Assembly (NCBI GenBank): GCA_051294905.1
Contig: CM119372.1
Coordinates: 8,248,001-8,312,000 of the forward strand
Source of the DNA: Botryllus schlosseri
Taxonomy: Eukaryota
Reading direction: 5' to 3'
DNA: 64,000 nucleotides
Positions within the stretch are counted from its first letter, which is position 1. Each line of letters opens with the position of its first letter. A program made the translations under genes and the position numbers. The notes below the pieces were generated by a model that worked only from the letters and a program-made list of their open reading frames with translations, searched no databases and had not been told where the DNA came from. Shown here one piece after another: positions 1 through 55,111 of this stretch.

Positions 1-128
1 GCGGCGATGACGTATTTCTGTCGCTCACTGATGGCTTACGATGTCTACACGTGATGCAGAAAGGAAGATCATGCTCGGATTATAAAATACGATTTTGTTG
101 CCGAATAATAAACTTTTGGGCAAAGTAA
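1..128 (+). CDS. 3' end of an exon encoding the C-terminal half of a mucin CysD/WxxW domain (gene starts upstream of the window)
   Basis: Frame from nt 3 reads GDDVFLSLTDGLRCLHVMQKGRSCSDYKIRFCCRIINFWAK* (TAA 126-128). It aligns without gaps to the exon at 17780 (GDHVLMSLDDGLRCFNNMQSGKLCSDYEVRFCCR) and has the CysD C-terminal signature GLxC...CxDYxxRFCC. Could instead splice at GTAAAG (125) to the acceptor at 1278. Confidence 0.85.
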   Translation, partial: GDDVFLSLTDGLRCLHVMQKGRSCSDYKIRFCCRIINFWAK

Positions 129-752
129 AGCTATATATCACACGGACGAGAGGATTTGATGTGTCCGTGTCGTCAGGGCCCAGACTGCTATAGCAGGGTT
201 ACTTAAAGTATGGGTCGCGAGAGTATGAATTAGGGTCCCGACCAGCCTAGAGAAATTGCTAAATTTCTAACCACAATAACAATTTTTCGCGCTTTGCGCG
301 ATCTCATGCGCATGGTTTATTCCAGTGGTGGCTCTTGACAATATCGAGTGATCTGGCAGGAGGTGCACGCGATGTATGTTGTCTAAATGACGTCATAATA
401 GTGTATTCCGACGTGAAAATGTGACTTCATGGTGGTCACACACAGTTTCTACGGGGTATAGACATTAGGTATGGTTACCTAGGCTTACGTATTTCAAATT
501 ATTCTGAAGAAAATATGAAGTACAGTAGTCCATACCTGCATATTTTAATGTTTGTACCAGCAGGCCTATTGTGCGCGGCGTGATTTCATTGTTGCAAAAT
601 GTTCAATGACGATTTCATTGAAATCTGGAATACCCAGAATGACAGCGTTGAAAATCGAGAGAACGCAGCTAAAGCATCGAGCCTCTCTTTGCACATCCCG
701 ATCCTAAGAAAGGACCAAGTCTCTTTCTATACTTCTAATTTTTGCTCGAAAG

Positions 753-3299: not shown

Positions 3300-3302
<3 letters not shown>

Positions 3303-3331: not shown

Positions 3332-3388
3332 CAAGAATAGGACGTCCGAGAATGTATTGAACATTCATTACTGATGTCATTGTCATGT

Positions 3389-3395
3389 TATAAAA
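3389..3395 (+). promoter_or_regulatory. Candidate TATA box of N1
   Basis: TATAAAA about 280 bp upstream of the ATG at 3670; motif only. Confidence 0.3.
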
Positions 3396-3669: not shown

Positions 3670-6600
3670 ATGTACCTGGTTGCTCCGTTTTGCCTTCTTG
3701 TCGTTTTCAGCTTCGACGTTGAAGGTAAATATTGTAAACTTTAGGATTTACTACACGGAAATTCGGTTTCAGAGTAAAAGTACCCTATAAGTCCACGAGT
3801 TTTTGAAGAAAACATTGTCGTAAACACAAGCAGGCACTCAAATCACGGTGTGTTGGGCTGAATTGTCTCAACAAAGCGGGTCCCTTCAAACTGGACCACG
3901 GGTGCGGACTGGGCAAACTGGTGTACATGGGTGATTCGATTCTCAATCGAGTATTAGGCTTCGAGTCGAGTCCAGTATTCGAGTATTAGTCATTATGACT
4001 CCGTGACAGTGTGAATGAAGAAAATCTTTTCAAAAGTTTGGCGTTGTGACGCGACAATGTCGTCTGGAAAAACAATGCCACAGCTCAGGAGCAAGTGAGC
4101 ATCGCCGCAAACCACAACACACAATTCGAGGCTGAATTTTTTGTGTCTGTTTTCTAGGGCCACGGGCAGAGTAGAATTTACATTTTCGTAATCAGTACTG
4201 ATGAAGCTTTCGATTGATATCTGTTTTATCGAATTTCGCGCCCGGCCAGTCTAAATATTGCTGTAAATGCCCATGATAGTCAAATGCAGAAAATGACGCA
4301 GTGAGGACGAATTGCCAAAAAGGAGGACATTTAGGCGTCATCGGAGGACATTTTCAATTTCCTGAAAAAGGAGGACAAATCCTCCTAGAGGTGGACGTAT
4401 GGTAACCAATGTCTCCTCCAATTTTTGACGCGTCTGCGCACACCAGTGTTGGGATCAAGTCACTACCTTCGAGTCACGAGTCATTTCGAGTCATTGCACA
4501 TTTTGACTCGAGTCAAGTCAAGTCAATCGATTTTCTAAAGTGACTCGAGTCAAGTCAAGTCACCCAATTCTCGGAGGTGACTCGAGTCAAGTCGAGTCAA
4601 GTCAAGTCAAGTCAAGTCAAGTCAAGTCAAGTCAAGTCCAGTCACGAGTCAAGTCATAATTCAAGTCAAGTTGCCTTTTTGAAGTATGAGACATGATTAC
4701 GTCATTGCATTTTGCTAGCTGGCTGAAATATAGATTGAGTGGTCATTGATTCTGAACCGATGGACGAATACAGAGATAAACATACACGCAAGAAGGCCCT
4801 GTATCGCTCACATATAGCCTACGTGGCATAGCCCCGTTTTATAGGTACTAGCCAAAATAGAGAATAGATAATAGAAAATCGAATTGATATAGATGCAATA
4901 CATTACCCATTTACAAATTGATATGATACAATTCGAGCCTGCGCCAATGGTTGAGGAATAGATAAACTATATTCGAATTCAATTTCAATAAAACAGGAGG
5001 TTTCGTTAGGGTAAGTACAGAGAACAGAAATAGACATCTTGCTATTAAATTATTTTACTATAATTTATGGCAGCATAAGCTGTAAGCTTCGATCACTTCG
5101 TTTGCGGAAAATTTATTTGTGAGAGAGCAATGGAGGCTCAGTAAAACGCAGGATCATTGAATGATTGGTCGCTCTCACGGCGTTTCACACCAGCGTTTCG
5201 CGAACAATCCGACCATATGCTAGATACAGTGATTTTTACCGACACCGATTACTTCATGACTTGAAATTGACTCGTGAATTTTGCTCCGAGTCACGAGTCA
5301 ATCCACATTTCTGATACGCCGAGTCAAGTCAAGTCAAGTCATTCTAGCAAGGTGACTCGAGTCAAGTCAAGTCATTCGAAAAAAGTGAATCGAGTCTGAC
5401 TCGAGTCAAGTCATGACTCGAGTCATCCCAACACTGGTGCACACTCACCAACTCACTGCGCAGACCCTTGGACAACAGTGCGTAACGACTAAATTAAAGG
5501 TCCTCATTTCGGATTTTTTATGCAGAACTTAGATTTTCTGTGCGCAGAAACCGTCTGAGCACTGCGCATTTGCGCACGTGCGCATCTTAGAGGGGGCATT
5601 GATGGTAACCCTACTATTAAAGGACATTATGAAGTGCCTGATTTGAGGACGTCTAATGCTTTGGTCTGGCTTGAACCGGTTGTTGTACTGTTGTGCTCTG
5701 CAGTCGTTGCAATGGATCCGTCGTGTGTGTTAAGTTTGATCCAGTGGAACCTATGGCGAGTGTAGCCATCCACTAACAGTTAGACGGGTCAACGACCGAA
5801 TGGCTACACATGTAATATCTCTGTATTGACGATGGATGGTAGCAGAGACTTGGTGTCACGTATATATCCGGGCATTTTTTCACAAATGAAGGTTCTACAA
5901 TTTAGATCAGGCGTGTCAAACTCAATAAGGGTCGCGGACAAGATTGAAACCTTATGATCTCCCGCGGGCTGCACAGTCAAATGAAGCCAAATGGTACCGG
6001 TTATCCCCCAAATCCAGACCTTTGTGCTTCACTGGATTTATTCATTATGAAGCCTATGCATAATATATATTATTACGGATGATTTGGGGCTCTAGCCTCT
6101 GTATTCTGGCAACATATGTATTCGGAAACAACGGAATTGGCGACAATTACGATTTGAAACCGATTGCATATACAATACATCTATAAACCGCTAAAATAGT
6201 GGCTTTAACCTGCTAGTCACAACAATATAAATTGATATCTTTCTATGCACCCGTTGTTTTAGTCGCGTCGCGCGAATTGGCCGAGCGTGTATTTTGTGAG
6301 GAAGACCAGAGTTTAACTGTAAACGCGGTCACCAAAATTTGCCGCGAGATGGTTACAACGTGGCATACGAACAATGAACACGTTAAACATTTCCTGTCTT
6401 GAGGAATTATTTACATGAAAGTTGATATTATTAAGAATCTCAACTTTTCTTATAAATGTGATAGAATTGAATAGTATGAAAACATATTGAAATGAGCCCG
6501 AAAATTTTCGACTGACACTCGTCAGGGTAATCGTCAGCAATTAGTAGAGAATTGGGTTCATTTCAATATGAATATACTATTCAATTGCATATTGAAGTTC

Positions 6601-9600: not shown

Positions 9601-11142
9601 CAGATTGTTAAACCAACTTCGCCCGTCTATTCGATGTACTCAAGTTGCGCTTCCGAGTCCAGAGAACGGTTGGGCTTTACTACCCAGGAACCAGCTATAA
9701 CTCGCGCCATCGTAACGGAAAAGCCTGAACCTTTAGAGATCAGGAAGTTCGGGAAGAAACGTAAGTATTAACCAGGGCTTTGGAGCAGCGGTAAATTTGA
9801 AACTGCCCCAGCTCCAGCTTCGGCGCTCTCTATTATCATAAATTATCTGCGGCTCCGCATTCGAGATCTATCTAATGCAGGGGCGGGCAACATACGGCCA
9901 GCGGGCCGGATCCGGCCCGCGAAGGGATTTTGTCCGGCCCGCGGACAGTTTTCCGTCTTACATGATAATGTGGCCCGCAGCCCCAGTCTGCCAAGATTCC
10001 CATTACTTGCTTACTACGTCAAATTTTAGTGACTCTATGTTAGTATATGCGTGTATCCAAAGCGTGCGAGAGTATGGAGCTTACGCGTAAGTTCGTCGAA
10101 GCGAGAAGCAGACTTGCATTATCGGCATTTACGATGTACTCAGCCCTAATGTCGTTTGTGGTAATCATGGTGTTTGTCGACTATAATGATCATTTACACC
10201 AGGCTGATATATCTTATTTTTAATCCGTAACCGCCGACTTGTAGCACGGCACACTTCTAGGCTTTCGTAAGACACCGCTTATACCAGGCGTCGCCAACTC
10301 AAGACGGGTCGCGGGCCACTTTTCAAATTTCGTGGAGTACGCGTGCCGCAAGAATTCAACATCGATATTAATTACGCCACACAGTTGAACAACGACGCTA
10401 TCTCGTCACCTGATATCCTGGTAAATTTGAGGTACCTGGCTCATCGAACGCCTTGAAATCTTAATTAAGAATTGCACCGTGTGTTCATTGATAAGCTGGA
10501 AGCACCATTGACGGCGCCTGTGTGACGATGCTATTCTCAAATCCACATTGTCTTCGTCATTATCGGCGAGAAATGGCTTTGAAGTGACATTGCTGTCGTT
10601 GAAGTTCATTCATTAAATAAGATTTATTCCTTGTATACGTGGCGTGGATAAATGGGCGAATAATGTATCGATTCAGCAATCCGACCCGCCAAGTACTTAA
10701 AATTCCTATATCCGGCCCGCTAACTGGAGAAGTTGCCAGCCCCTGATCTAATGGTTCAGTCAGTAATCGGTAACAACGGTTGCAGCCGTCCCAGAGAACC
10801 GTCAATTTGTGTGGTTATTCGAAGTCATGTGACGTGATAATTACTGTGTGTCGTCTGCTGATGAAATTACCGCCGCACGAGAATGCACTTAAAGGGGCAC
10901 TGCGCTCTAAAAATGATGTGGTCTCAAATTGAAGGGCAGCAAAACGAGAATTTTTTTCTGGCCGCAGCCATTTCCTTCAGAACGCCACCGTAATGGAGCT
11001 GCAATTTATTGAAATTTCCACAGGACCTTCACGCTCCAGGTGTCGCGGCTGCGCGTCATTCCTTAACCCGTTACATGCACGATGTCTTCACCGTCGCACT
11101 TGCTCGACGCGATTAGGCAGTCACGCAGAGAACGAACTTTAG
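3670..11142 (+). CDS. Gene N1: uncharacterised secreted, furin-processed cysteine-rich precursor (short model about 384 aa; long model with CysD exons about 536 aa)
   Basis: Phase-compatible GT-AG exons: 3670-3724 (signal peptide MYLVAPFCLLVVFSFDVEG), 6782-7016 (CHNAQ...SGRKRR...FFTDCMMSK...SWRSVVDFVIRDSKW...EEFC), 7231-7355 (KCWQRRTEYML...KDCIAEY), 8589-8907 (...MRPKR...YGECLVSK...HPSL...DKFVKEHYSSCR), 9459-9760 (...EHCPL...SCLISDY...SSCASES...). Candidate terminal exon 11024-11142 (RPSRSRCRGCASFLNPLHARCLHRRTCSTRLGSHAENEL*). Exons 1-5 match N2 in sequence and intron phase; the terminal exon is less certain. Confidence 0.85.
4407..5601. mobile_element. hAT-type MITE (CAATG...CATTG), middle layer of a nested insertion
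   Basis: Perfect 8-bp TSD ATGGTAAC; uninterrupted sibling at 55333-55449. Confidence 0.85.
4444..5436. mobile_element. hAT-type MITE with CAGTGTTGGGAT TIRs and subterminal (GTCAA)n/GACTCGAGTC arrays
   Basis: TIRs CAGTGTTGGGAT/ATCCCAACACTG; TSD GCGCACAC/GTGCACAC; inverted second copy at 59674-62444. Confidence 0.92.
5908..6707. mobile_element. hAT-type MITE (CAGGCGTGTCAAAC...GTTTGACACCCCCG)
   Basis: TIRs and perfect TSD ATTTAGAT (5900-5907, 6708-6715). Confidence 0.88.
9878..10745. mobile_element. hAT (Charlie/Buster-like) MITE
   Basis: CAGGGGCGGGCAA...TTGCCAGCCCCTG; perfect TSD ATCTAATG; GGCCCGC subterminal motifs; contains a SINE 3' fragment (about 10195-10280). Confidence 0.88.
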
Positions 11143-12931
11143 ATAGTTGTTGACATATTTCCTTCATAACATCGGCTGATGTCCGTCCGTCGATCAAGTT
11201 TACTGGAATGTAGAAGGTTCCCCTTCACACGAATCGATTGATCTATGAATTAGCGCCACTGAGAATCTGGTGTTGCATCAAAATTTGACAACCTAATTCA
11301 ACGCCGTGCACTGTACTGTACACGTACACAATGCAACGTGTTAGGAACGAAGTAAACTACATGCGCGACAATATTAAAAAAATACGAGTGTATGAAGCAG
11401 ATAAGAATGAATACAGAAAACTTTGGATTACTAACCGGAAATTGCGCACCGAATCTCTAATTGCAATCTTATATCCAACACCAGGGGGTTCGGATATTGC
11501 ACTGACTAGCTTACTTCGCGAGAATCGTGACAATTATATTCGGACTATAGAATGCCATTCTGGGCTGCTTTGATGCATTTCCCTATTTACGTTCGCAAAT
11601 ATTTACTGGAGTAAACGATCATGCGCTGGCATGAATCTCCATTCGTGGACAACTAGGCATACACAATAACACACTGTCCAATTTTGAGCTATCACAAAAC
11701 TATTACCAAAGTACACGTGTATTTGCTGGTATATGTTTCTCGGTGTGCGACGTACGCGCCCCCAAATCGACATGTGAAGCATCATGTCATGTTTTTATTC
11801 TCTTGCGTCGCTTGTATAAATTATTCGTCTGATTACTAATTAGTTGAATTACTCAGCTAACATTATCATCAGCACATGTAACCGTTACAATGGAATCAAT
11901 CACTGCATTATCTATGAGTAGAGTGATCGTCAGCTCATAATCGGGCTGCTATGTGTCGAAGATTCGTTTCATGCTTCTAATCAAGCAGCTTTTAAACAAA
12001 ATTACTCCGCAAAACCTGAGCCCACTGCCTGTATTTCAACTTGCATTACAATATTACTTCTCAGGACTTGTTGTTCACAACTTTAGTTTATCCATTTGGA
12101 AGCAACGAATCAAGCAAGCAATCTTTTTGCAGAAAAAAACAGCTCATCGATATACGAAACGCGTTTTTTAATACGCTGTATTCACAAAAATGGATGAGTT
12201 ATGGCTGTCACATTTCAAATCCTATGTTATGACTGGTGCAAAAGCATTCATAGTTTTATTGCCATTTGTATCTTAATGACTATGACCTATGTCAACATAG
12301 CTTCTTTGTTTTGACCAAAATTAAAAGATGTTCTCGAGAGAGACTGCTTGGAATTGACGACGAAATGCGGGTATGCTGATACAATGCAAAATAACCTCGA
12401 TTCGTATTACCACATTAATCATTTTTTCAAAAAGCATAATACTTCCGAAATTTCAAGATGGCTATAACTGACTAACGCTAAATGGATAAGGACTCTACAA
12501 ATAGGGGAACACTTTCAAATACATTCAGTTACCGCAATACATGGGCTATTTCACGCGGTTCTTATGATAATTTGTTAAAGTGATGCGAAGTTATACCCAG
12601 AACTAGTTTATACTTTTCAAAGCCAAAAGTACTTGCCTTTGTAAAACTGCTGAAGGGAAAGTGAAAGTATTCTAAAACATTATTACCCGAGTAAGTAGTG
12701 AAAGTAGCCGGATCCTATTACTTGAATACTGCAAAGCAGTAGAAGTATTTGTAGGATCTTCATTTCAATTGTTATGATGTATAGATATATAGATATATAT
12801 AGAAAATACAGCTACAACCAACTAAACATGTTTTAAACAAGGGCCTCGTCTATAAACATGTGTTTTACATTCGCTTCCATTTTCCGAATTTCACTCAAAC
12901 ACAATCTTTGTTGTAACACTAAAGTCATCAT

Positions 12932-14212
12932 TATGGCAAGTTTTTGCAATTTTTGCAACTTTTCTTTTACAGCTTCCGACAGCTTACTAGATACTCAGAA
13001 TATATGTACTATAATGTTTTAAGTAGAGCCCGACCGATATTGAATTTTTGGGCCGATACCGATAAAACCGATATCTAACACCTTCACCGATAAGACCGAT
13101 ATATTCAGCCGATATTAAAAAAAGGTGGAATCTGCCTCAAAAGGTGCATTTTCAAAAATTCAGAGCATTTATTTCAACAGCTTCACAGCATGAAATAAAC
13201 TACAACATGAAATAAACAAGATAGGCTGCATCTGGACACCTTGAAAGTTAAAGATATATGAAATATAGCAATATTCTTAGTCTAGAGGTCAAGAATTATA
13301 GTTTTCTGACTTGATACCATCATGTTGTGACGTCACAAAAATATCCGATATTTTTTGACCTCCAATGGCCGATACCGATAATTCTTTCAAAGTCTAATAT
13401 CGACTCGATATTATCGGCGAACCGATAATCGGTCGGGCTCTAGTTTTAAGGTGTTTGGTGGGATTTTATAGTGCAACTTTTTGCAACTTTTCTCTGTTTT
13501 TCATGCCAACTTTTACTGCAACTTTGATCAATTATTGCGTAAAATATAAAGGATTGACTTAAAACATGCTATAAACTATTTCTAGTATGGTTCTATTCTC
13601 TTTGATTTGCATAACAAAGAGCTATATGATGGGTTAGCTGCATCTCAATGTTATCTATTACACAATGGCTTGCAAGCAAGAAGTGTAACTACCCTTGCCA
13701 AGCACGACCGTGCCCGAACAATATGTAGAGAGTCGCTTTATCAATTCTGTCCTTCAAATTTGAGACAGTATCCCATTTCATGAACGCCCAGGTGAGACCG
13801 CCGAAAATAACATTTTCACTGGGTCACCTTTTTCAGGCTATTGATTCTGTTAAAGTCGCCGATCTAGGGGGGGGGGGTCTGGGGTGTTTCATTTGACTTG
13901 TTTTTTGGGGAGAGGGGGTTATCACAATGCTGTTTGGCGTTTGGTGTGAAAATTTCTCCCGCATTGCCTAATTTTCTTGCTATATGCCGGAAAAAAATTG
14001 TAATTTTTAGCGGTTTCGCCAGACCGTCCATTAAATGGCGAAGTAACAAATTTGACAGGTCTGCAAGAACTAGGTTATACAACGGATCCTTTAGAAGATT
14101 ATCTCACATCCTAATAATTCAACAAAAATTATAAATGCAACTTTTTACTGCAACTTTTGTTAAAATTAAGTGCAAATTTCTCGCGATTTGAGTGCAACAA
14201 AAACTTGCCCTA
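12932..14212. mobile_element. hAT-type MITE (TA[T/G]GGCAAGTTTTTG TIR, TGCAACT subterminal repeats)
   Basis: Perfect TSD GTCATCAT (12924-12931, 14213-14220); hosts the nested element at 13024-13442. Confidence 0.88.
13024..13442. mobile_element. Nested hAT-type MITE (TAGAGCCCGACCGAT TIR, CCGATA repeats)
   Basis: 15-bp TIR; perfect TSD GTTTTAAG (13016-13023, 13443-13450). Confidence 0.92.
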
Positions 14213-14293
14213 GTCATCATTATTAAAATTAGCGAATCTGACTCATCCTACTCTGAGACGTAGGCCTAGTTATTTATAATCCAGAAACCAGTA

Positions 14294-14382
14294 ATGTGCC
14301 ACTCGCAGGGTAATTTCATCATCAGCCATGGCCTACTACTACTAGGCCATGCATCAGCACAACCTTGTTGGCCAATTGTACG
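14294..14382 (+). CDS. Candidate signal-peptide exon of a stand-alone CysD gene
   Basis: MCHSQGNFIISHGLLLLGHASA-QPCWPIV with an A-x-A cleavage pattern. Donor CG|GTTCGA (phase 2) joins in frame to the second acceptor of the tandem CAGGTAG, giving an exon start at 17784. The hydrophobic stretch is short, so support is weak. Confidence 0.3.
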
Positions 14383-14413
14383 GTTCGAAAATAATGATCG
14401 CTATGTATTACGC

Positions 14414-16834: not shown

Positions 16835-17057
16835 ATATAGATAGACACCTTCGATAGTATTCAGAGCCGGAGCCGGAGCTGGAGCCGGAGCAGTGGTAAT
16901 AATGCGGCTCCGGATCTGGAGCCGGAGCTAATGTATGATAGAAGAAAGCACCGGAGCCGGGGCTGGAGCAATGCAAATTTACGGCTGCTCCAAAGCCCTG
17001 TGTGCCAGGACAATGGTCATCGAAAGCTCAAATTGGCGTTCAGAGAGTCAAACCATA

Positions 17058-17708: not shown

Positions 17709-17779
17709 TATCATCAAACGGTCTGATCTACTTGCAACGTTGCTTTTTCCACCTAAGACAAATTCATATCATGACGCAG

Positions 17780-41500: not shown

Positions 41501-44500
41501 ATTAGAGAGCCTCTTTGCGTTTCACGAAATCACGGCTCCCCTGTACTATTTCTAACTGGTCTGCTTATCAAAAATCGTGCATACACAAACCTGAGCTCCT
41601 GAGTTGTCTACTTATCGTTCGGCTCAAATCCGTTTGTGTTGCACTTGTACTACCTACTTTATTCGCCACCATTCATCCACAGTTTGCCTGCCTTATAATG
41701 TCAGGCATACTCACCATATACAATGTATTTCGTCCATTTCAGATCCGTGCGCTTCGGTGCGATGTCCAGCAAACAGCAAGTGTGTTAACGGCGACTGCGT
41801 ATGCGATGCCGGATTCGAGCTCGTCGATGGACGTTGCAGAAGTATGCGTTTCGAGTGCTTCTCAAATTTTGCCTTTACTCTAGCTAGTCATTTCAATATG
41901 ATGGTATGAATTCAAAATATTTATGAACTCACAGGACTCAACCCGTGTGCGGGTGTTCGCTGCGGCCCCAACATGAGATGCGTCAGTGGGAACTGTGTGT
42001 GTCGCAGTGGATTTGTCCGGGCACCTAATAACAGACCAGGATGCGTTAGGCCAGGTTTGATATTTTGAAGTCTTCAGACTAATATTGGTTCTGCTAATCA
42101 ACCAAATATCGACCGCGCCTTTGCGCACACTTGTTGTTTCATCGTTATGTTGTCTAGACATGTTGGCAGATCTCGTCAAAGTACAGCCGTTGGTACTTAA
42201 GTAGAAGTAAACTATAGTAAATTCCTAGGCATGTCAAAACTACTTGAAGTGGAAGTCGAAAATAAAGGTTTTGAAGTCTCAAGCAAGTAGTTTCCAAAAT
42301 TACATTTGACCGAGGGATGGCATATATCTTTAGCAGTTAATCGGAGGTGGTTTCTTTCAAAATAGCAGGATGCATTTCTGTTGCTGACGGAAAATGACTA
42401 ATCAGCAATCCCCCTGCAAGGCGCAAATTTTGAAAATATATTCGTTCCCGCGACACGGGGCCTATTTTGCCCGGCTGTCATGACAACCTTCCTCCTTAAT
42501 GGGACGCAAACTTATCCCAAACTACAAAACATACAAAACGTAAAAATCATGTAGTTTTTCCCACAAAACTGGTAAATGGAAGTGGAGAAAAGAAAGCAGT
42601 CTGAAACTTCAGCACTTGAGTAAGTACTAAGTAGTGCAACAACGCAAAAACCTATTTGAGTAATCCGAAAAAGTAGGAGTATTTCATTACTGACCACTTG
42701 TGCGACCAGGTCATCACACAGCAAACCGATATATTGTAGGCTATATATATCGGGGGTGCGCAACGTAAGGCTCGCAGAGAACAATTGTGCGGCTATAGGG
42801 TTGCATTTAAAACAAATGGTTGTTTAAAACATGTTTTTTAAACAAGAACCTTTTTTTTAATTTCAAGTTGTAAAATGATGCCATAATTGTGTAAATACTT
42901 TCTAAAAAAAAAGTTGTATGAGCCTGCGGACAATTACCACCCGATATAGCCAACGTATACGATATGGGATGGTTGGAACCCTCAAAATAGTCGGTTGTTT
43001 TAAACATGTTTGTTTTAAATGCAACCCTATGTGAGACCCAAGAAGTGCGAATTTTGAATGCTGTTTGGCCTTTGAACTAGTTTCGAATTCAACTTTATTC
43101 CAGGTAGCAGTGGTACGTTTGAGCTAAAGAGGGCAAAATGAAGATACAAAAGCACTAAAATAAGCATATACCAGTAAATAGCTTTTCCCGTGATTATTTT
43201 TGACAAAATGGATTAAATGACCAGACAATTTTTACCGCGTCATCGCCGTTACCAAAGTTAATGAAAGGGTAGGGATATTGTTCTTGCAACTAGCAGAAAG
43301 TATATGTGCGGCTCGCTGCTCTCTCGTCACTTCTAACTAGCCAGCTCATCTAAAACGTTTAGCATGTAACCCTACTTATGGTTCCTGAGATGGCGACTTA
43401 TCGCGCGGCTCACTTTATTTGGTTTTGCAGCGGTGTTCATTTCGACTGTCTTACTATGTCAGTCATTTTCTCCATATACGATGTATTTCTTAATTTCAGA
43501 CCCGTGCGCTTCGGTGCGATGTCCAGCAAACAGCAATTGTGTTAACGGCGACTGCGTATGCGATGTTGGATTTGAGCTCGTGGATGGAAGTTGCAGAAGT
43601 AAGCGTTCCGAATCCTTCTTAACTTTTTTCTTTGCTGGATAGGAATTTCATTGTGGTTTAAATTCGAACCATTTATGAACTCGCAGGACGCAACCCGTGT
43701 TCTGGAGTTCGCTGTGGCCCCAACATGAGATGCGTCGGTGGGAATTGTGTGTGTCGTAATGGATTTGTACCTGCTCCAAATAACAGACCAGGATGCGTTA
43801 CGCCAGGTTTGAAATTTTGAAGTCTTCAGATTATTGGTTTTCTTCGCGAAATATCGACGATAAGCACTATGGTAGCGCAGTGGTCATGCTAATTTTTACG
43901 TGCTTTATATGCTCTCTCTCTTTTTGATCGAACAGTCGCGCTTAAGGCATTAACTGAGTTTAATCGCGCTAAATAGGGGATTATTCAACAAAAAGTTTCA
44001 AACGGGTATTGCGTGTCCAAACCTGGGAAAGTGCGCCCCTATAGAAGAGTGAAAGCACTTGATAGAGTACAATCTGCAGCTTTCTGGCAAAAATGATAAA
44101 CTATTGAGCCCGTAGAGCTGTTTTAATCCGAGGTTGTGTTAGAACGATTTGGTGTTATACGGCCCCGTAAGTCAGACCGCGATGAGTTTCATCCGATAGC
44201 CGACAAAGGCCATTGATGATGATGATATAACGCGAATTTATAGCATACACTTCCAACTTCCCCATATTTAACTTGTTATATTTGCATTTTTTCTTCTATA
44301 GACCCTTGCGATTCCGTGCAATGTCCGACAAATAGTGAGTGCAGAAACGGAAACTGCGAATGCGTGACTGGATTTGTGCTCATAGACGGATCTTGCAGAA
44401 GTATGTGTGAATTATACATCTAAAAGTTCGGAATTCAATGTACCAATGCCTTTCAACGAATAATGACTTCACAGGACCCAACCCATGCAGTGGAGTCAGC

Positions 44501-47500
44501 TGCGCGACCAACATGAGATGCGTCAACGGGAATTGTGTGTGCAGGAATGGGTTCGTTCCGGCGCCAAACAGCGGACAGGGTTGCGTGAGACCTGGTATGT
44601 TATCACTCAAATGTATGCGGAGGCGAATTGTCAAGATTTGGTCACCCGCCCTCTCAGACAAGCATACAGCGTACGATTTACGCGAATCACCGTATTTATG
44701 ATCCGCCATGTTTACAGATGGTACGAATATGTCGAATCTAGAGACGGACCACTACAAAATCTTCAGCTTTCCCAAATTAGATTCGAATTTAGCTACATAG
44801 TTTCTTTCCAAATTAGATTAGAATTTGAGTTATATCTACACATTTTCTTGCAAATTGAATTATTATTAGTAGAATTACTTAATTCACGAAAAATCAAGAA
44901 ATTCACGAAATTGAATCAAGCTCAGCTTGTATCAAGTCAAACCAGAGTTCATTATCAAAAGCACGAGAATGGCAAATATCTGTAGAGCAGTCTTGGATCG
45001 TTTCGCACTGTACATTTCTCCAGAAGCATTTTCAAGAATACCGGAAATAAGATTAAAAATAAAATTAGAGCATACTAAAATTTCGCGACCGAGATTAGAA
45101 TTAGAATTAGAGCTGAGGAAACATTTCCCCCGGGGCCGAAAGGGGCGCCAGCTACGAAATGGGCGAATGGGGGAAGGGGACTGAGAGCAAACTTTAGCGC
45201 TATGGACTATGGGAAACCGTTTGGGAAAATCCGTAAATTAATAGCTCCCTCTGTGCACCAAAGTCAGATCTATGTATTGTGGTCACGTCGTTCGCGATCG
45301 TGCAAGGTGCATTCAATTGAAAATCGTCACCAACGCTCTCCGTTGATGGTAACTGCTATGTAACATTTACTTAACCAACCAACCAAACAATCACTCAAAC
45401 AACGAGTAGACTAATTATTCAGTGACATGCACTTGTCGAGCGCAAGTTATGAGCACACATTCAAACGCATGTACAACGAGAACGATGAAGTTTTAAGCTT
45501 ATATCGCACCAAAAAGAAGTAAGATGATTTGGAAGAGAAATTGCTTTGGAAGATTGTTTTCACTGATTGTGTGCGTCCTAGAATTTTTGAAAAAAAATGT
45601 GACTCTGACATATCATATATCGGGCTGCCAGTAATTTAGATGGAGACAGAAATTCTACGCCGGGATGCCAAACTTAACTTGTATCACGCGCCGGATTCAA
45701 AACTTTTGGTCGCCCGCGGGTCGGACTATAGTCAAATGATTCCGAAATGTCACCTTCAAATCCACTCCTTCGTTCTTCACTGGTTTGCTTTATCATGCAA
45801 GATATACTTCATAGTATGCAATATATTACAGATCATATGGCTCTATGCTAGCAACCATGTTATTCGCAAACAACCGAGTTGGCAAAATACGATGATTGAC
45901 TTATTAAATGCAGTTATAAACCACAAAAGAAGTTGCTCCAGCAACATGTTGGCATATTTGTATCCTCCCCCCCCCTTTAGTCGTGATGCGGCGTTACCCC
46001 TGCGCATTTGTTGTGAGGCATACAAGTGATTTGACTGTAAACGCGGACGATGGAATTTGATTCAATATTTTAAAACTCAACACTGTCGGCCGATGCATAT
46101 AATGTGGACTATGAACATGCTAGAGATTTGCGGTCTTGGGGGATTACTTACGTTCAAGTATTTCTTACTTAAATTCTCAACTTTTGTTAGAAATGTGCAA
46201 TGGACCAAACAACTTTTTGTCGGGCGTAGGGGACGTTGCGAAAAAAAGTTTGGGAAACTCTCTAATTAAACAATGTTGTCGAATCTCTGGTCTGGTTAAA
46301 TATCTCTAATTAACTGCGTGGACACAGTTGTACAAACATGCATTTGCACTTCTGGATGGCATATTGTATCTATTCTACCCTCTTTATAGATCCATGTAGC
46401 TCGGTGAATTGCGATGTAAACAGCACCTGCGTGAATGGGAATTGCTTATGCAGGCCTGGCTTCGTGCGTGTGGACGGGAATTGCCGAAGTATGATCTTTT
46501 TTATTCTTCATTTTACACGCTAAGGTGCGAGATACGACTGCGCTTTATTTAGGTCCATGCGATTCATTCTGCTCGGAAAATGAAGAATGTACTGTCGTGG
46601 GATCGAGACCCAGTTGCAGCTGTAAGGCCGGGTTTACATTGAATTCGATTGGGGAGTGCGTAGGTAAAGTGTCTTACATTTATTTGGTGTTTTTGTGCTA
46701 ACAATTTACACGTGATGTATGTCTATTCATTTGCCCCAAGTTCTCAGATTAATCAAATTTGTAAGACCAGTGAATAAGAAAATCGGTACTAGGATTATGA
46801 TTATAATTATGATTATGATAAGAATATAATTTTCTTAGCCTGATATGAGCTGCATTGTACAGTAGGGTTGTTAAAAAATGATTTTTTGGCAAATTTTTGC
46901 GGCTAATAGCTAAAATTATTAGGTTAGCTAAAATAGCATTGCGCACCAAATTCGGCTCAATTCCAACGAGTAGAAGTGAAGCTACCAGAGTTGGAAAATT
47001 TTGAATTTATTATAAAAAAAAGTTATCATTTTTTCCAAATTTTACTGTCTACCCCATGGTATTGTCAAGTTGTCCAAAAACACAATACACAGAAAATCTG
47101 GCTCAATTCCAACAGGTAGAAGCGAAGTTATTGGAATTGAACGTCTTTGATTTGAAAAATTAGTACTTTCTGCATGTGATTAATCCAAGAAATATTGATG
47201 AGAAACTCGAAAACCTTCACTTCTACCGGCTGGAATTGAGTCAAATTTGTTTTGCATGCAATGGGTTGGCCAATAAAATTTGAAAAAAGTCAAAATTTCT
47301 GTATAATAAATTCGATAAACAATAATACAATATAATAAAATTTCCAACTCCATTAGCTACAGTTCTACTCGTTGGAATTCAGACAAATTTTGTGTGCAAT
47401 GATTTTAGCCAACCTAACAATATAGCTAAGCCGTAAATATTCTAAAAATAAGACATGGAAAGGCACGACTTATATTAACCCTGTATTTATTCTATGTCTC

Positions 47501-50500
47501 CATATGTAAATCTGAATAACTGTGTGGGATAGCCAGAGGGGGTATAAAGATACTTTAAGAAATCATTTATCATTCGTCACGTCACTTCATTCTCGTTTAG
47601 CGATTGCGTCCAAGCTATGCGCTGTTACTGTTTTCTCATGTTGCTTTGCGTCTGTATTAGGAAGTGATCCTTGCGCCGGAGTGTCATGCGGGCGAAACAT
47701 GGTATGTAATAATGGCGCTTGCGTATGTCGCCAAGGATTCACACCGGCACCAAATGGTGTAGGATGCGTCACACCACCTCCAGGTGAGAGCCAATAGAAT
47801 GGTCGCAGCAGAGTCTCTATCTGGGCACCGGAAATTTGTGATATCGGTAGCTACTCATTGCTAACAAGTCGTAACGCAAAGAATATTCAATATGCCGGAT
47901 AAGTAAGGTACACGACTTACTTCGACGTTGGGCTCCTAATCAGTTGCGTGATCTACCCAACGTCATTTATGGAATACACCAACATATACATGCAGATGTC
48001 GTCAAAGTAGTCTGCGTTCGTACTCAAGTAGAAGTAACGCTGTAAATTTCCACTCAATTGCAAGTAGAAGTAGTGAATTCCAAGACATGTCAAAATAACT
48101 TGATTGGAAGTAGAAGAGCAATGTACGAAAAGCACGTATGTAAGTAGTTTCAAAAAGTACATTTGGTCGAGGAGGTCACACAGTCTGGCAGTTAATCGAA
48201 GCGGGCTGTTTCCGGAATTTGCGGGGTGCTGCCAAAGGTGTTGCCAAAGTATCCGAAATCTACTTTGTACAATACAAAATCCACGGTTTCAAAGTATATA
48301 TTTTGCCGCAAAAATGGGAAATAGAAGCACGGAAGAAGTCGTAGAACATAACCAATTGAATAAGTCGTGCAAGTAGGCCACATCTACTTTGAGCAATCGG
48401 AATAAGTAGAAGTACTTCGTTACTTGGCGAGTCAATGTGTGGAATAGATTGATCAATATAAAAACATGATCTACTAGTTATAGCAAAAAAAAAATGAGCG
48501 CAACAACCACTATATGGTCCTGTCCGATATACTCAGATCCCTGCCGAAATGTTAACTGTCCGGCGAACAGTAACTGTGTTCTTGGGGACTGCGTCTGCAA
48601 CGCTGGATTCGTAAAGAGAGGAGAGTTTTGTCTACGTGAGTACATGTTTGAAATGGTAGTACTGTTGTGTGGCATGAGTCATGACAAGTATCAATAATGA
48701 CTTTATAAAACTAATAATTTAATGCTACTATATTGTATTGGGGTGGGTTCAACCATTAATGTGGGTAAAGAACGACACTTTGGTGGTGCGAAATATATTG
48801 TAGTTGGAATAATGTCACTCAACTCAACTCCAGTAAATTAACTGAACAATATCGAAAAGTCGAATAATCCTGAACTATGATAATGCGTTAAAACAGGGTT
48901 GTGCTTAAAGCGAAGCTAGAATGTGTCAAATAAGGTCTTTATCCAAAACGTGTTACTAATAACACTGGTCAACACAATTTTTGCTGCAAATTGTCATGGT
49001 GTCTTGGGCCGAAGTATGGGATGGATCGAAGTAACCCTGTTGGTTGCACAAAGTGAAACAGAAGTTTTCAAAATGGAAATTCACGAACCCACCGGCATGC
49101 GAACCCATCAGCTATGATTGTTTTGTTAGCAACCCGATATGCTACACGACGGCCGAATGCGGTCTATGGTTATATTTCTAAACTAATATGTCTTCTGGAG
49201 CAGATTCTATTCATCAAATTCCTTCGCGCTTCGCGCGACTTAGTATCTCGAGATTGCTTGATTCTATTATGGGTGCATTAATATATTTAATATGCATAAT
49301 TTACAGTAATGAGTTCAGCCGCGCAAGCAATTATGAGAGAATTACATCCTAATATCCTATCCCGGGAACAGGACTGTTAGGAACCGGCATATTCTTTGCA
49401 AGAAATTAAGCAAATATTGCGTGCATTGAAAGATCGTTGTAGCAACCCAAATTTATACCCTTCGCGTCCCCTACTTCAAGAACCGCTGGCGTAACCGATT
49501 CCATTGGCAGTTTTAGATAGGCGGTTGGTGGAATTCCTTTCTTTGACATTTAAGACAAAACTAAACCTGTTCGGCACGCCAGTTGGTAATATGTTAACAT
49601 TGACACGCTGCATACGAAAGGTTGCCGACCCCCAACCTGCATGATTCAGATGGCATGCTACCGGTCATTATTCATTGCTTCATATCCTCCCCAGATATCC
49701 GCGCGTAAATAAATACATTCGAAGGGTGATTTTTGCAGGTCCGACCTCGTGTACCGGAGTGCAATGTGGCGCAAATCAGAGATGCGTGAGGGGGACATGC
49801 GAATGCTTGCCGAACTTTGTACCGGTTCCCGAAGGCGTCGAATGTATTCGCGAAAGAGGTCTGAATCATATTCAAGATTTGGACTTCAGTATCAGTTTAT
49901 AAATATTTTCATCATTTCAAAACACCACAAAACTGCGATACAATGAAAAGATAGGAAGGTGTCGAAACGACTTGGAGTAGTCTTTGAAATCAGACACCCA
50001 CATGGCCTAGGCGAAGTAGAGAAAAACATGCACACTGAACGAAGAGTAAAGCAGAGAATATAAAAGGCAAGCGACAAAATGAGGTGGCATGTGGCGGAAG
50101 GCGAGATCAATATGCTAGGTCGTGGTCCGGTAATCCTGAAGGCTGACTAGTAGTCATTTAGAAGAAACTGCTTTTATTTCGACTTCAATGTGGACATGCT
50201 CGACGATTGTCGGGTGGCCGGCGAGATGCTGTTCCACAATTGGGGTCCGGCATACTTGATGGAGCGATGGGTTTGTTTGTATTCCGTCCCGATCATATGA
50301 TAGTTGTTCATAGTTGACGCGCGTGTCGTACTTATGCGCTTTTGACTCCGAGGTGAAGTATAGTCGTTGAAATCTGAGGGGCAGTGACCACAATGGAACT
50401 GATACATAAATTGGTTGGTTGTAGCTTTGTTATATCTTCTGTTTAGAACACCAAATCTTTTGAATAGCGATTTATCAATTGCACATCCAGGCCCCCTCCG

Positions 50501-53500
50501 GGCCCCCTCTTCCTGGCATATGGATGATCAGATGTTGTAGTTTTTGCAGTGGGTCATATCCATGACATCGTTATTATGAGTATAGGGTTCCTGGGCACAA
50601 TTATTTGACCAATCTTATCTGAATCGGGTATTATTAATTCTAACAACTCTTGCCAATAACAGTTATTTTATCTACGACCATTATAGTTTGGATAGTATGT
50701 GTTCGACTCTGGAATCCTTGAAACCTCAATTGGTCGTATTACAGCGTGCGAACTATTTTGTGCAAAGCTACCCACGTTAGTGCAAATGACATTTCTATCA
50801 AGTCGTGATCCACCGAGAGCATTGTCCGAAAATGCGATGAAATGGACATGGTCGTAAAATATCAAATTATATCTAATGTGTTGTAGAACTCGCATATATT
50901 TTTATAGCATAGTATAGTTACATACATGAAGAACTTTTCACATCTTCCATACTGTCATGGCGTGATAATGAGTGATATTCGAATATTCGACTCGAATCGA
51001 CGCTTTATACTCCGTTCAGAATCGCATCACTCAGGAACTCGATTTTTGCCGGTCCTAATGATGAGTATTTCATACATATTAGTGTCTCACGTCGTCTCTT
51101 ACCATTCATCTAACATCTGGTAGTGGTAGTGTGTTCTCGAAACGCAACACTCCTCTCTTGAAACCACTTTCCGATTATTCAAAACACATAGATTACACGT
51201 CACATCTCATTCAAAATACTGAGCACATTTTAAATCACCTGACTCGCTACGCACACACATATGGAACTATATACGAGCCCGTCGCAGTAACCACCAGTCC
51301 AGTATTCGGCAATAACTATTTTAACCTCGCTCCTTTCAGGACAATGGAAAGAGTGGGGAGAGTGGCAGGAATGCTCTCGAACCTGTGATGGGGGCTCCCA
51401 GGTCCGATTCCGAGAGTGCGACGGAAATAATTGCAACGGTGACCCGCTCGAAAGCAGACCGTGCGGAACGCAGGCGTGCGCGAGTGGTGAGTAAGAGGAC
51501 TCTGTATGCCTCAGTACCTATATACGTATCGACAAGTGGTTCGCGCACTTCACTCGATAATGCGATTTTTCTCATGAAGGCCGTTACGCAGTTTTTACAA
51601 ATACCTCCAAGATCACTCGGCAGCATATCGAGTGAGGATGTTTGATATTATTTTTTTACGGGTCGCGCCGATAATATTGAGGATCACGTTGATAGCAATT
51701 AGCACTGGTTATGTCCAAAAATGTGTTGTTGCTGGCCTGGATTTGTAAATCAGGTTCCCAATTAAAGATACAATAGTGATGTTAAGCTTTGAATCAAGTA
51801 TGCTTACGGCATTGGTATTCTCTTCGTGGCATACTTAATTGTTTCTTCACGTGCCGTGCATTCTGCAAAACCAATCACCAGACCAGACCGGGGCAACTAG
51901 ATAATTCTGGTTGTCTAATTTGACCAGTTAGAGCAAAATGTCAGTAATCCAATTATGATCTGCTTTGTGAAATGCATATGCCTAAATTTTAATTCTAATC
52001 TATCTTTGGTTTTCCTGAAGATGTCTTGGAAAACTGTATAGCGCAAAACAAGCCTAGCTTGGTGTACAATTGTACATTAGGGCTGCTCAAAAATAACTTT
52101 TTGTCCGGATTCCAGCCATTCACCGATTAAATTGTCAGGTTACCCTAAAACGATGCACACAAAATTTAGTGCCAACTAGTAGAAGTGGAGCTATTTGAGT
52201 TTTTCGTTGATAATTCTCGGATTATCCTTGATTGGTGGACAAAGAAAAAACTCAAATAACTCCGCTTCTACCTGTTGGAATTGAGTCAAATTTGTTTTGC
52301 ATCGTCTTTGAAGACAGGTCAACAATTTCATGGGTTTGACAGACAAAATTGATTTTTTTGTAATTTTCCCTAATAAATTAAAAAAATTAATTGGATCTGC
52401 GGAGTCTTATACTTGTTAAAATTGAATCAATTTTGGTGCGCAGTGTTTTTATGGGGCAACTTGACAATTTAATTAGTGAATGGCTGGAATCCGGGACAAA
52501 AAGTTATTTTAAACAGCCCTATTGTACGTACAGTCATTTGACATGCTGACGATTATGAGGATGGACTCTAATTTGATGTGTGAACTTGACTCGTCTTGTG
52601 CTGTAGTTCTCTCTAATTTGGAATTTCATTGAATTTCCGAGTTTTTACGAATTCAGTAATTCGAATTTCAACCTATAATTTGAACAAATAAAACTATTTA
52701 TCTATAATTATAGTTCTAGTCAAATCTGGAAAAGCTGAAAATTTGCTAGTTGCCCAACTCAGCGCCATCAATCATAAGCTGTTCGAAGTATATATTCCAA
52801 AGTTGATTGATCAATTATTGTGAACCCAGTCAGAACACATTCTTATTGACTCACTTTTATTTAGATCTATGCGCTGGGATAACGTGCCCAGGAGAACTGT
52901 CATGTACAGCTGGTCGATGCGAATGTCCATCAGGTGCTACAAGAACATCCGACAACAGATGCGTTCGTAAGAGAGCAATAAAAAGAGAGTATTGTACCGA
53001 AACCCTGTAGCCAATACGATATTTCATTCCTTTCAGAGTGTACGGGCGGAAAGCAGTACGCTCAATGCGCTCCCTTATGTTACGATATATGTGGAGGGAC
53101 GGCTACACCTGTCGACATTACCAGTTGCTTCGGCGCCGGCTGCCGGCAGGGAGTAAATTGCGTGTGTCCGCCTGGTCAGGTGGAGCGTAGTTCTACCGAC
53201 TCCACTTGCGTGCAGGCTAACGCGTGTCCAGGTTTGTCCGCTTTATATTTGTAATTTGGCATGGTGTTACCGCCAATTTTGTTGCTCGCCAGGCGAATGG
53301 AGGCCATGGGGCGGATGGGATACATGCTCCCGTACCTGCGGAGGTGGGACGCAAACTCGTGAAAGAACTTGTCGCGGTACCAATTGTGATGGAAATGGAA
53401 GCGAAACTCGCCCGTGCCAGACTAACGCGTGCCCAGGGTCAGGTCCGTGTATACAGGTTTTAGCGGTGTCGTTACGAATAGAATATGAAGCTTTGTTGGC

Positions 53501-55111
53501 GTTGTAATTGAGCTGAAATGTCTCGAGGTCAAGCCAACTGACAGATGAGACCAGACCAGCCATTAATGTGACTTCGTGCATCTTACTGCATTCGGTTCGG
53601 TCTCTTTTCCCAGCATATTTAATTCGAGATTTTTAGAATTTATCTCCGATATATCCAGACCAAGCCGTACAACCGAAGAATCGCGTTGATCTTTTTGAGT
53701 ATAGAATTTAAGTCACACTCCCACAGCAACATCACAATTAAGGGTGGGCACCGGGCACCTTGATTCAAGTGCTCGAATCCGAATGGAGTATTAGTTACAG
53801 TGACTCGATTCGAGTAGTGAGAGACGGTATTTTCGCGTACTGAAATTATACACCCCTATAGGAGTAATAGCGTTTCCAGACAACTTAGTAATTTGTCAAT
53901 AAATGAAGAAACTGCATCAGAGATAGCAATATGACCAAACTCTTCGCCTTCTATGTCTTCATTTATGTTCCAGGAAATTGTCAAGCCCCAAAGATCTTCA
54001 ACGCGTGTCCAACTAGATGCCCGAAAAATTGCTTGAATCACGCTATAGAAATACAGTGCGAGTCGGGTTGTCGGCAGAACAACGTCCAATGTGTTTGCCC
54101 CGCTGGTATGGTGGAGAGAAGTTCCACTGATAGCACGTGCGTGAGCACGAATCAATGCCAAGGTGAGTTTTTTAAGTAATTCAAACACAAATCCAGGTCA
54201 CTCAAGATCATTATTCTTTCACGCAGCCGGCGGACCGTGTTTCCCGAACCCATGCCGGAACAGCGGTACGTGTATTCCGATCGGGTCAAGATATATGTGC
54301 GACTGTCTTGACGGCTACTCGGGGAGACATTGTGAAAGTAAGCTAATGAATACTGTAAATATACATGGATGGAGAATATAGGTTTATGGAGTGCCCGTGG
54401 AGACTTTTGATAACCCAATTCTGCTTTTGCACTCATTGAAATGAGAGAAAACGATTCAAATGCACCAATGCTTATGCGTTGTAGTGATTTCTGTTTACCA
54501 TATGTACCAGATTTTGGCGCCACCTTGGGCTGATGCACAAAAACAAAAACATCTCCCCGATTTTCATGTACAGTGAATGGTTGAGGATTCACATATTCAA
54601 CGTTTCCAGAAGCCCATAAAAACTCTGTGCGAAATGGAAATCTAAAATACCTCTGTATAAGTTGAAAACGCTAGTTTCTGTTTTTGTGGTATATATCATT
54701 CAAACGATGCGAACTGCCCTGCCACAGCAGCTTTAGTAGTTGCATACATTGTATCACAGTGGACTATAGTCATGGTCAATACGCGCCTTTAAGATCCGAT
54801 TTACCCCATTTCTTACGAAACTCTGGCGTTCGTTGCTTCGGAGTCGCATTTTAATCCTTTTCAGAGGACAAGAGGACAATTTCCCAAAAAAGGGGACATT
54901 TAGGCGTCCTCCGAGGACACTTTCAATTTATTGAAAAAAAGAGAGGATAAATCCTCTTATAAGAGGACGTATGGTAACCCTATTTCACCCCAATCTTTCA
55001 GTCGGATGCACAGCAGCGGTATGCTCCCCCGGTGGACGTTGCGTCAGAGGAAAGTGCGAATGTAGCGTCGGATTCCAACTCAACGGAAATGGATCTTGCT
55101 CGCGCATCTGA
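29564..55111 (+). CDS. Gene N2: large secreted mosaic protein (signal peptide; two furin-delimited Cys domains; 20 EGF-like; TIL; TSP1; TIL; EGF; EGF-like), about 1285 aa, no transmembrane segment seen
   Basis: 30 phase-compatible GT-AG exons: 29564-29618, 32503-32785, 32950-33083, 33164-33374, 33447-33631, 34939-35052, 35124-35240, 36782-36895, 36966-37088, 37162-37278, 37916-38035, 39279-39377, 39460-39579, 41743-41841, 41935-42054, 43500-43598, 43687-43806, 44302-44400, 44475-44594, 46390-46488, 46553-46663, 47661-47783, 48537-48635, 49739-49858, 52865-52966, 53037-53231, 53293-53442, 53974-54162, 54227-54337, 55002-55111 (TGA). They sum to 3858 nt with an open frame throughout. Signal peptide MNLRITALLLAFAISSIEA. 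Confidence 0.9.
31112..31680. mobile_element. hAT-type MITE (TAGGGTTGCATTTAAAACAA TIR)
   Basis: 20-bp TIR; perfect TSD TTTGCGCG; siblings at 25630-26004, 28345-28576, 42796-43029 and a fragment near 12820. Confidence 0.92.
32503..33631 (+). CDS. N2 exons 2-5: propeptide plus the two unrecognised cysteine-rich domains
   Basis: RRRRKR and RGKR sites; FFTQCMLEK...RSWKSVIDFVFRDTRW...QYC; SCWQGRINFLL...KECIQEY; YDNCI...YPSLRSW...DKFVKEHVSNCR; EVCPL...PCLSEIY...KSCTE. Collinear with N1 exons 2-5. Confidence 0.9.
34201..34428 (-). mobile_element. LINE 3' UTR fragment (same family as 27724-28345)
   Basis: Reverse-complement match to 28056-28330 with an internal deletion; short tandem tail at 34201-34221. 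Confidence 0.85.
34939..52966 (+). CDS. N2 array of 20 single-exon EGF-like modules (all phase 1-1)
   Basis: Each exon is 99-123 nt with six Cys. Type A example DPCASVRCPANSNCVNGDCVCDVGFELVDGRC (C-x4-C-x5-C-x4-C-x-C-x10-C); type B example NPCAGVRCGPNMRCVSGNCVCRSGFVRAPNNRPGC. Confidence 0.92.
37798..37821 (+). pseudogene. Relic of a dead type-A EGF exon
   Basis: TTTTAG|ATTTGTG...CGTTGCAGAC|TTAAGCGTTTCGAGTGC versus functional TTTCAG|ATCCGTG...CGTTGCAGAA|GTAAGCGTTTCGAGTGC: internal deletion and loss of the GT donor. Confidence 0.7.
42796..43029. mobile_element. Internally deleted TAGGGTTGCA MITE inserted in an older MITE remnant of one repeat unit
   Basis: Both TIRs present; absent at the homologous sites of the other units (about 38800 and 40325). 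Confidence 0.8.
46865..47482. mobile_element. Long-TIR MITE related to the 52080-52519 family
   Basis: 46924-47001 is the reverse complement of about 47337-47416; shares the TTCCAACxxGTAGAAG motifs. Confidence 0.7.
49886..50475 (-). mobile_element. LINE (L2/CR1/Crack-like) ORF2 C-terminus and 3' UTR, decayed
   Basis: Minus-strand remnant ...RSIKYAGPQLWNSISPATRQSSSMSTLKSK*KQFLLNDY; upstream KSLFKRFGVL...FMYQ broken by a frameshift. Confidence 0.85.
52080..52519. mobile_element. TA-flanked long-TIR MITE (Tc1/mariner-pogo type)
   Basis: TA|GGGCTGCTCAAAAATAACTTTTTGTCCGGATTCCAGCCATTCAC...GTGAATGGCTGGAATCCGGGACAAAAAGTTATTTTAAACAGCCC|TA, with about 90 bp of inverted homology. Confidence 0.9.
53037..54162 (+). 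CDS. N2 TIL-TSP1-TIL exons
   Basis: Two 10-Cys TIL-pattern exons (53037-53231, 53974-54162) share CVCPxGxVERSSTDSTCV. The TSP1 exon 53293-53442 has WRPWGGW, CSRTCGGG and TRERTC. Confidence 0.9.
54227..55111 (+). CDS. N2 final exons: canonical EGF and terminal EGF-like module
   Basis: PCFPNPCRNSGTCIPIGSRYMCDCLDGYSGRHCE, then GCTAAVCSPGGRCVRGKCECSVGFQLNGNGSCSRI* (TGA 55109-55111). Confidence 0.88.

Follow-up and report, generated by a model that had tools for sequence, protein, structure and literature searches.

A stretch of 64,000 nucleotides of Botryllus schlosseri (assembly GCA_051294905.1, contig CM119372.1, positions 8,248,001 to 8,312,000 of the forward strand; hereafter the window) consists of intron-rich animal DNA and holds two tandem genes, gene A (N1) and gene B (N2), that encode mosaic proteins predicted to be secreted. 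Both proteins begin with the same kind of unannotated domain, which we call the head and which is common to a family of module-swapping proteins, and both continue with a tail built of other extracellular modules. This anatomy, with its shared head and shuffled tails, can be regarded as practically certain. The decisive observation comes from gene A, the RNA of which joins the head exons, across an intron of 8,019 nt, to two exons encoding CysD domains (Mucin2_WxxW, PF13330). Because of this long intron, the CysD exons gave the impression of belonging to a gene of their own, and the alternation of CysD genes and head genes, which a preliminary description of the window had read as a possible duplicated two-gene cassette, is an artefact.

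Two genes with a common head and different tails

The gene models were assembled by picking exons on GT-AG signals and joining them by script, which gave two stop-free frames. Gene A comprises 7 exons between 3670 and 19566 of the + strand, on which all the exons given below are located, and encodes a protein of 536 aa made of a signal peptide, the head, a short linker and two CysD domains. The coding part of exon 1 (3670..3724) encodes the signal peptide and ends with a phase-1 donor. The head is encoded by exons 2-5 (6782-7016, 7231-7355, 8589-8907, and 9459-9760), begins with an N-terminal Cys-His, and carries 13 Cys and the furin-type sites RKRR and RPKR; these exons match no Pfam family below E 0.019. 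Beyond intron 5 (9761..17779), in which repeats recurring in the window make up 38%, exon 6 (17780..18055, phase 1-1) encodes the first CysD domain with the motif WTKF (Pfam Mucin2_WxxW, E 4.7e-19), and exon 7 (19268..19566) the second one with the motif WTPW (E 1.5e-16) together with the stop codon. A poly(A) signal AATAAA is found at 19667 and a TATA-like box at 3389..3395 of the + strand, upstream of position 3464 where both RNA-type contigs described below start.

RNA evidence was drawn from four runs mapped on positions 1-20000 of the window, with 15 of 179 joints listed. Run X23, about 6% of which was read, contains raw RNA reads, X1 and X4 contain contigs that are presumed to derive from RNA, and X21 is a single-cell run. 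The GT..AG joint from 9760 to 17780 is present in 7 raw RNA reads with 5 distinct starts in X23 as well as in two contigs, one from X1 (1,719 nt) and one from X4 (1,869 nt), which traverse all seven exons. Furthermore, each of the six joints predicted for gene A is among those listed, the joint from 3724 to 6782 being carried by 2 raw reads and 2 contigs and 7355-8589 by contigs only, and donor 9760 pairs there with 17780 exclusively. X21 has no joints; its sense-side depth is 0 over 6671-8671 and 28.9 in the bin 19344-20000, which fits a 3' end of gene A near 19.7 kb. Hence, given this spliced RNA, the presence of only two signal exons on the + strand and the same layout in the library protein P0001, the exons at 17780 and 19268 are the tail of gene A. 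The preliminary description had proposed that each CysD locus is followed by a head gene on the same strand; two + strand head genes are indeed present, whereas 17780 and 19268 are exons 6 and 7 of N1 and form no locus of their own. If exon 5 were left unspliced, its frame would stop three codons past the donor (9760-9771), and a head-only isoform is thus possible on paper; none occurs among the listed joints or ends.

Gene B is predicted from its sequence to contain 31 GT-AG exons (29564-55111) encoding 1,334 aa, with 175 Cys and no internal stop. Exon 1 (29564..29618), retrieved by both the gene model and the signal-exon scan, encodes a signal peptide and ends with a phase-1 donor. Exons 2-5 (32503-32785, 32950-33083, 33164-33374, and 33447-33631) encode a head recognized by its 30% identity to that of gene A (E 3e-41), with which it shares the intron phases 1,2,1,2,1 and a terminal phase-1 intron; it starts with Cys-His-His, displays furin-type RRRRKR and RGKR sites, and contains 11 Cys. 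The tail opens with 19 six-Cys EGF-like exons of phase 1-1 (exons 6-24, 34939..49858), delineated by the gene model, self-comparison and a Pfam scan of four of them, and is completed by exons 25-31 (51340..55111), which according to the gene model and Pfam encode TSP1, EGF-like, TIL, TSP1, TIL, EGF, and EGF-like modules and the stop. The Pfam scan covered 10 of the 26 tail exons, six of which score above the curated cut-offs while four match EGF-type families below them. Four of the 19 EGF-like exons were among those scanned (one above the Pfam EGF cut-off, three matching EGF/EB families below it); both TSP1 modules, both TIL modules and the EGF module at 54227 exceed their cut-offs, the exon at 55002 falls below, and the one at 52865 is assigned from the gene model.

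In the tail of gene B, the 25 internal exons are without exception of phase 1-1 and have a length that is a multiple of 3. The ratio of nonsynonymous to synonymous differences (pN/pS) ranges from 0.05 to 0.51 in 25/25 repeat pairs, and the reading frame is under purifying selection. A pair of exons of 120 and 99 nt has multiplied recently at 37.9-44.6 kb and was duplicated along with its introns. The two-exon EGF-like unit is present there (37811-44603) in four to five tandem copies with an intron identity of 60-94%, an expansion of the array that is ongoing.

A head family combined with many tails

The head is a disulfide-bonded helical domain of ~230-290 aa (~270 aa), always located directly behind the signal peptide. 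Using a profile built from the P0001 head and the eight head exons of the window as bait, 24 proteins were retrieved at E<=0.001 from a library of 1.84 billion representative proteins, six of them being fragments. The genomic fragments P0003 and P0006 each match exactly one window exon (aa 140-245 of A and aa 19-113 of B, respectively), which indicates that exon borders are conserved. Comparison of 17 heads with Pfam gave no match better than E 0.03, and self-BLAST of the head revealed no internal repeat. Word-based sequence searches, an insensitive method, returned only 1-2 matches each, and a pattern scan of JGI metagenomes gave 167 matches, none confirmed. Among the titles and abstracts listed in literature searches, none describes the head, with the proviso that an unnamed domain is not searchable by name and that coverage of subscription journals is poor.

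Conservation was counted over 20 aligned heads, the six fragments being excluded, and the occurrence of sites over 20 signal-bearing sequences. Four Cys columns are occupied in every head and another four in 19/20, including the first mature residue. The statistic for residue -1 is circular, since only motifs with a small residue at that position were searched for. A basic RxK/RR site lies within the first 70 residues in 18/20 sequences and a His occupies position 2 in 15/20. Eleven Cys columns are kept in A, B, P0001, P0002, P0004, P0005, and P0007, hereafter the A/B subfamily, and 10 of these in P0013 according to the alignment. In six of the 20 sequences (gene A, P0001, P0002, P0004, P0017, and P0018), a Gly, as in classic amidation signals, directly precedes the first basic site. 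A start with Cys-His-His, possibly a metal-binding N-terminus, is found in gene B, P0004, and P0006. A and B have a hydrophobic N-terminus and no further hydrophobic stretch beyond the putative signal peptide.

AlphaFold models of the heads of P0001 and P0004 have a mean predicted local distance difference test score (pLDDT) of 77 and 79, a predicted template modelling score (pTM) of 0.75 and 0.74, and 134 and 128 residues at pLDDT >=90, respectively. Both agree on a helical core with one beta hairpin, and in both disorder affects the N-terminal peptide and a mid-head loop, where most members have their second basic site. Foldseek found no match at E<=0.001 in the PDB or BFVD. Against 48,161 chains, the two VIA-align searches reached at best Z 4.1 (root-mean-square deviation (rmsd) 3.3, 84 residues aligned) and Z 3.1 (rmsd 3.2, 72 aligned), where the background of the tool is 7-8; the second barely covered the C-terminal half of the head. 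In the ESM Atlas, the P0001 and P0023 heads gave no usable feature match, and the structural matches had a template modelling (TM) score of at most 0.38 by query, a result that shows neither novelty nor absence. One candidate relative in the PDB, Turandot A, appeared with the first profile at E 0.018 over a 52-residue stretch and was lost with a 17-sequence profile (best E 0.2); we attribute it to chance. A new fold, compatible with the want of a clear PDB match for these models, is thus possible and unproven.

The tails of the library proteins are strikingly diverse (Pfam at E<=0.01 unless stated). Two WxxW domains follow the head in P0001, P0002, and P0007, and one in P0013. P0001 (543 aa) reproduces the layout of gene A with 54% identity over 526 aa, while P0002 (608 aa) and P0007 (579 aa), made of a signal peptide, a head and two Mucin2_WxxW domains, are 34% and 26% identical to gene A. 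TSP1 modules form the tails of P0012, P0018, P0021, and P0024; they are accompanied by trefoil in P0023 and by trefoil, EGF and sushi in P0020. An EGF tail is found in P0008 and a sushi tail, below cut-off, in P0017, and weaker matches point to a TSP1-like module in P0004 (E 0.023) and a Ly6-like one in P0016 (E 0.16). By eye, P0008 and P0009 show a ShK-like Cys pattern that has no Pfam match, and P0015 and P0019 have no tail domain according to Pfam. P0005 carries LDL-receptor class B (YWTD) repeats after EGF-like repeats (257-510) that match the first tail exons of gene B (E 2e-31), and reads as a third layout within the A/B subfamily. Altogether, at least six kinds of tail are combined with the head.

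In the head tree, the partner of gene A is P0001 (support 99/96) and that of gene B is P0004 (96/94), a protein of 351 aa that is the nearest head to that of gene B (45% identity) and ends in one TSP1-like domain, a tail different from that of B. A clade uniting A and B is rejected (approximately unbiased (AU) test, p 9.2e-9). As A and B are not sisters, their duplication is old and tails have changed more than once; when mapped on the tree, the tail labels require 7 changes, where 4 would be the minimum, 9 of the 17 inner branches being weak. Phase-1 introns around the head support the gain and loss of phase 1-1 extracellular modules by exon shuffling. An array of N genes with interchangeable phase-1 tails, the other option of the preliminary description, is therefore supported as an evolutionary pattern by the phase-1 head ends, the 25/25 tail exons of gene B and the varied tails of the relatives. 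Automatic annotation would scatter this family under the names of its tails, such as mucin-like, thrombospondin-like or selectin-like.

The upstream CysD piece and the rest of the window

The window opens with the C-terminal part of a further CysD domain (3..128, + strand): the translation of 3-125 matches Pfam Mucin2_WxxW at E 1.6e-6, above the cut-off, and ends at a stop at 126-128. Its likeness to the exon at 17780, pointed out beforehand, is borne out in protein, with 59% identity over 39 aa (E 2.7e-13 in a search among the open reading frames (ORFs) of the window). Over 33 domain residues, it is identical to the first CysD domain (W1) of gene A at 21/33 positions, to W1 of P0001 at 22/33, and to the second domain (W2) of gene A, at 19268, at 11/33. 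At the nucleotide level, blastn self-comparison of the window at E 1e-5 gives no match between the upstream piece and the exon at 17780. The piece is without the splice donor used by gene A at this point (TA instead of GT), and its frame continues to the stop; loss of this donor may be the origin of a new 3' end. An AATAAA lies at 107-112 within the read-through, 14 nt before the stop and where gene A has an intron, and a weak phase-2 donor is seen at 124.

The upstream piece is of the first-CysD type and, in the simplest reading, probably represents the tail of an A-type paralogue situated beyond the window edge, or else a relic. Position 1 is crossed by no read or contig in 4/4 runs, two of which had gene A contigs at a depth of 51-57; this faintly suggests that the piece is not expressed together with gene A, and speaks to that extent against the co-expressed kit of the preliminary description, absence in such data being a weak sign. 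When the head profile was run against the 1,737 six-frame ORFs of the window, it found just the 8 head exons of genes A and B, and no third head is thus present. The window holds three CysD matches (the upstream piece and exons 6 and 7 of gene A) and two head-family genes, both on the + strand and starting at 3670 and 29564. A scan of the + strand for signal-peptide-like phase-1 first exons found none besides those of genes A and B, and one for further Cys-rich phase 1-1 exons gave 5 candidates, of which one passed the filters and is an intronic frame; none is of note. The window therefore contains two tandem paralogues of old origin, members of one family of predicted secreted mosaic proteins, and a third member probably ends within it.

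Beyond gene B, an annexin gene starts after about 1.8 kb on the + strand (56936-62810; Pfam Annexin E 3e-10 and 1e-11), with exons near 56.9, 59.1, 59.3, and 62.6 kb, and may continue past the window. Palindromic elements resembling miniature inverted-repeat transposable elements and a recurring inverted-repeat family are located at 17055-17711, at 46892-47441 and at 14429-15114 together with 16122-16781 and 57495-58808. In all four runs, reads cover many of these elements, which masks depth at the level of genes.

Possible roles of the head and comparison with known systems

A role in extracellular matrix or mucus is somewhat more probable than not and is the interpretation that we favor. The signal peptidase is predicted to leave Cys as residue 1, and a furin-type convertase would then cut 10-25 residues after Cys1, and often again in mid-head, in exposed loops, the resulting pieces presumably being held together by disulfides. 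Since the A/B subfamily has an odd number of aligned Cys (11), one thiol would stay unpaired, most simply the N-terminal one, and could form an inter-chain bond. The head might in this way serve both maturation and linkage, and anchor varied binding tails in a secreted layer such as a mucus net, tunic or cuticle; the CysD domains of gene A would, like those of MUC2, cross-link non-covalently, and gene B would contribute a long spacer in its EGF array.

Several observations weigh against this scheme. The N-terminal residues have a pLDDT below 50 and the pairing of Cys1 is not readable from the models, and the number of Cys is even in 7/19 signal-bearing heads, a number that varies with where the heads are cut. 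A free thiol is consequently not family-wide, and on both grounds cross-linking by a free Cys of the head is put forward only tentatively. No mucin-type proline/threonine/serine-rich (PTS) region is found, the maximum P+T+S content per 60 aa being 32% in A and 38% in B. The CysD domains of gene A have 6 Cys each, versus 10 in the MUC2 CysD, and the first is without the second Trp. A bolder version is speculative and rather improbable: the head would be a new fold and a universal connector, with a convertase-exposed Cys-His peptide (free thiol or metal site) coupling differently tailed members into a feeding net or tunic in a combinatorial manner unrelated to VWD/cystine-knot polymerisation. 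If the head is indeed a linking unit, the invertebrates most closely related to vertebrates would have a further, new way of building secreted gels or tunics. Its fixed N-terminal Cys, its furin sites and the small size of some members (536 aa for gene A, 351 aa for P0004) make it biochemically tractable.

The evidence on the locus itself was confronted with two other explanations. A separate CysD gene and N gene, duplicated together as a two-gene cassette, would account for the strand order and for the likeness of the two CysD pieces, and in N1 read-through of exon 5 could lead to a stop at 9771. Nevertheless, the N1-CysD transcript is spliced, 9761-17779 holds no signal exon, P0001, P0002, and P0007 are themselves fusions of a head and two WxxW domains, and the AU test separates heads A and B; we consider this explanation virtually untenable and, for 17780/19268, such a duplicated unit is ruled out by the splicing to N1 and by the lack of a further signal exon. 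The swapping of tails could alternatively take place at the RNA level in one complex locus, head A being spliced to phase-1 exons of gene B or an upstream gene to N1. Every tail junction is of phase 1 and hence compatible on paper, yet donor 9760 goes to 17780 only among the 15 of 179 joints listed for the stretch to 20000, a sample that still allows for rare forms. In addition, a stop and a poly(A) signal terminate gene A, and gene B starts with a signal exon of its own, so that we hold this to be very improbable.

Other explanations assign a different function to the head. It could be the precursor of a signal or ligand, from which furin would free either a helical ligand or a short Cys-His peptide from the N-terminus, with amidation in those sequences that have Gly before the cut, while the tails set the location. 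The conservation of the cut site (18/20), the Gly that immediately precedes the basic residues in 6/20 sequences, including gene A and P0001, and the compact helical core predicted by the models are in line with this idea. In contrast, the released peptide would range from ~4 to >40 residues and is constant only at its first two positions, 2/20 sequences lack a cut site, and no cytokine or hormone is among the fold matches listed, a result that the fold tool itself annotates as inconclusive; on balance, a ligand is unlikely. We judge improbable a diversified innate-defence family in which the head binds a conserved target on a microbe or host surface and the tails serve as effector or recognition modules. 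TIL, sushi, trefoil, and TSP1 modules, common in barrier and immune proteins, do occur among the tails, along with the weak Ly6-like match, and the repeats of gene B have expanded recently, but these repeats are under purifying rather than diversifying selection, the layout of gene A is constant in P0001, P0002, and P0007, and the same modules are as frequent in matrix proteins. Finally, a Cys follows the signal peptide in 19/20 aligned heads according to the predicted cleavage, as in Hedgehog and Spitz, which raises the idea of palmitoylation by an enzyme of the Hedgehog-acyltransferase type as a tether to the cell until release by furin. According to the review PMC8061759, however, an N-terminal Cys does not suffice by itself and a basic residue has to be present among the first seven; a Lys or Arg is found there in 8/20 sequences only (in gene B but not in gene A), and lipidation of the head is highly unlikely.

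Genes A and B were also compared with known secreted proteins. Stanniocalcin is a secreted helical protein with 11 Cys that forms a disulfide dimer. The heads are likewise helical and predicted to be secreted, with 11 Cys in the A/B subfamily, whereas the spacing of the Cys differs. By sequence, 0/17 heads match its Pfam profile at E<=1; stanniocalcin is also absent among the listed fold matches, which does not in itself exclude a common fold.

Gel-forming mucins are defined (PMC4948705) by three or four VWD-C8-TIL units plus a PTS domain. VWD and C8 are unmatched in the 23 exon translations scanned, the other exons of gene B being six-Cys repeats of 33-41 aa, and neither A nor B has a PTS domain. 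The CysD domain is what gene A, with two above cut-off, has in common with MUC2, MUC5AC, and MUC5B; gene B has none. The MUC2 CysD dimerises non-covalently, and oikosin 1, a major house component of Oikopleura, contains 13 tandem CysD domains (PMC3195396), against two in gene A; genes A and B are thus not oikosin 1 (PMC3195396; PMC3390340). MUC2/MUC5-type mucins and oikosin 1 are without the head, to which the CysD domains of gene A are fused.

A parallel lies in the mosaic extracellular proteins with arrays of EGF, TSP1, TIL or sushi modules that arise by shuffling of class 1-1 exons, a concept from the work of Patthy. Like them, A and B have tail modules encoded by symmetrical phase-1 exons (25/25 internal exons of gene B and exon 6 of gene A), together with signal exons and head ends of phase 1; they differ by a constant four-exon head that belongs to no Pfam family and is fixed at the N-terminus. 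By their exon structure, A and B thus behave as exon-shuffled mosaic extracellular proteins with an unannotated constant domain.

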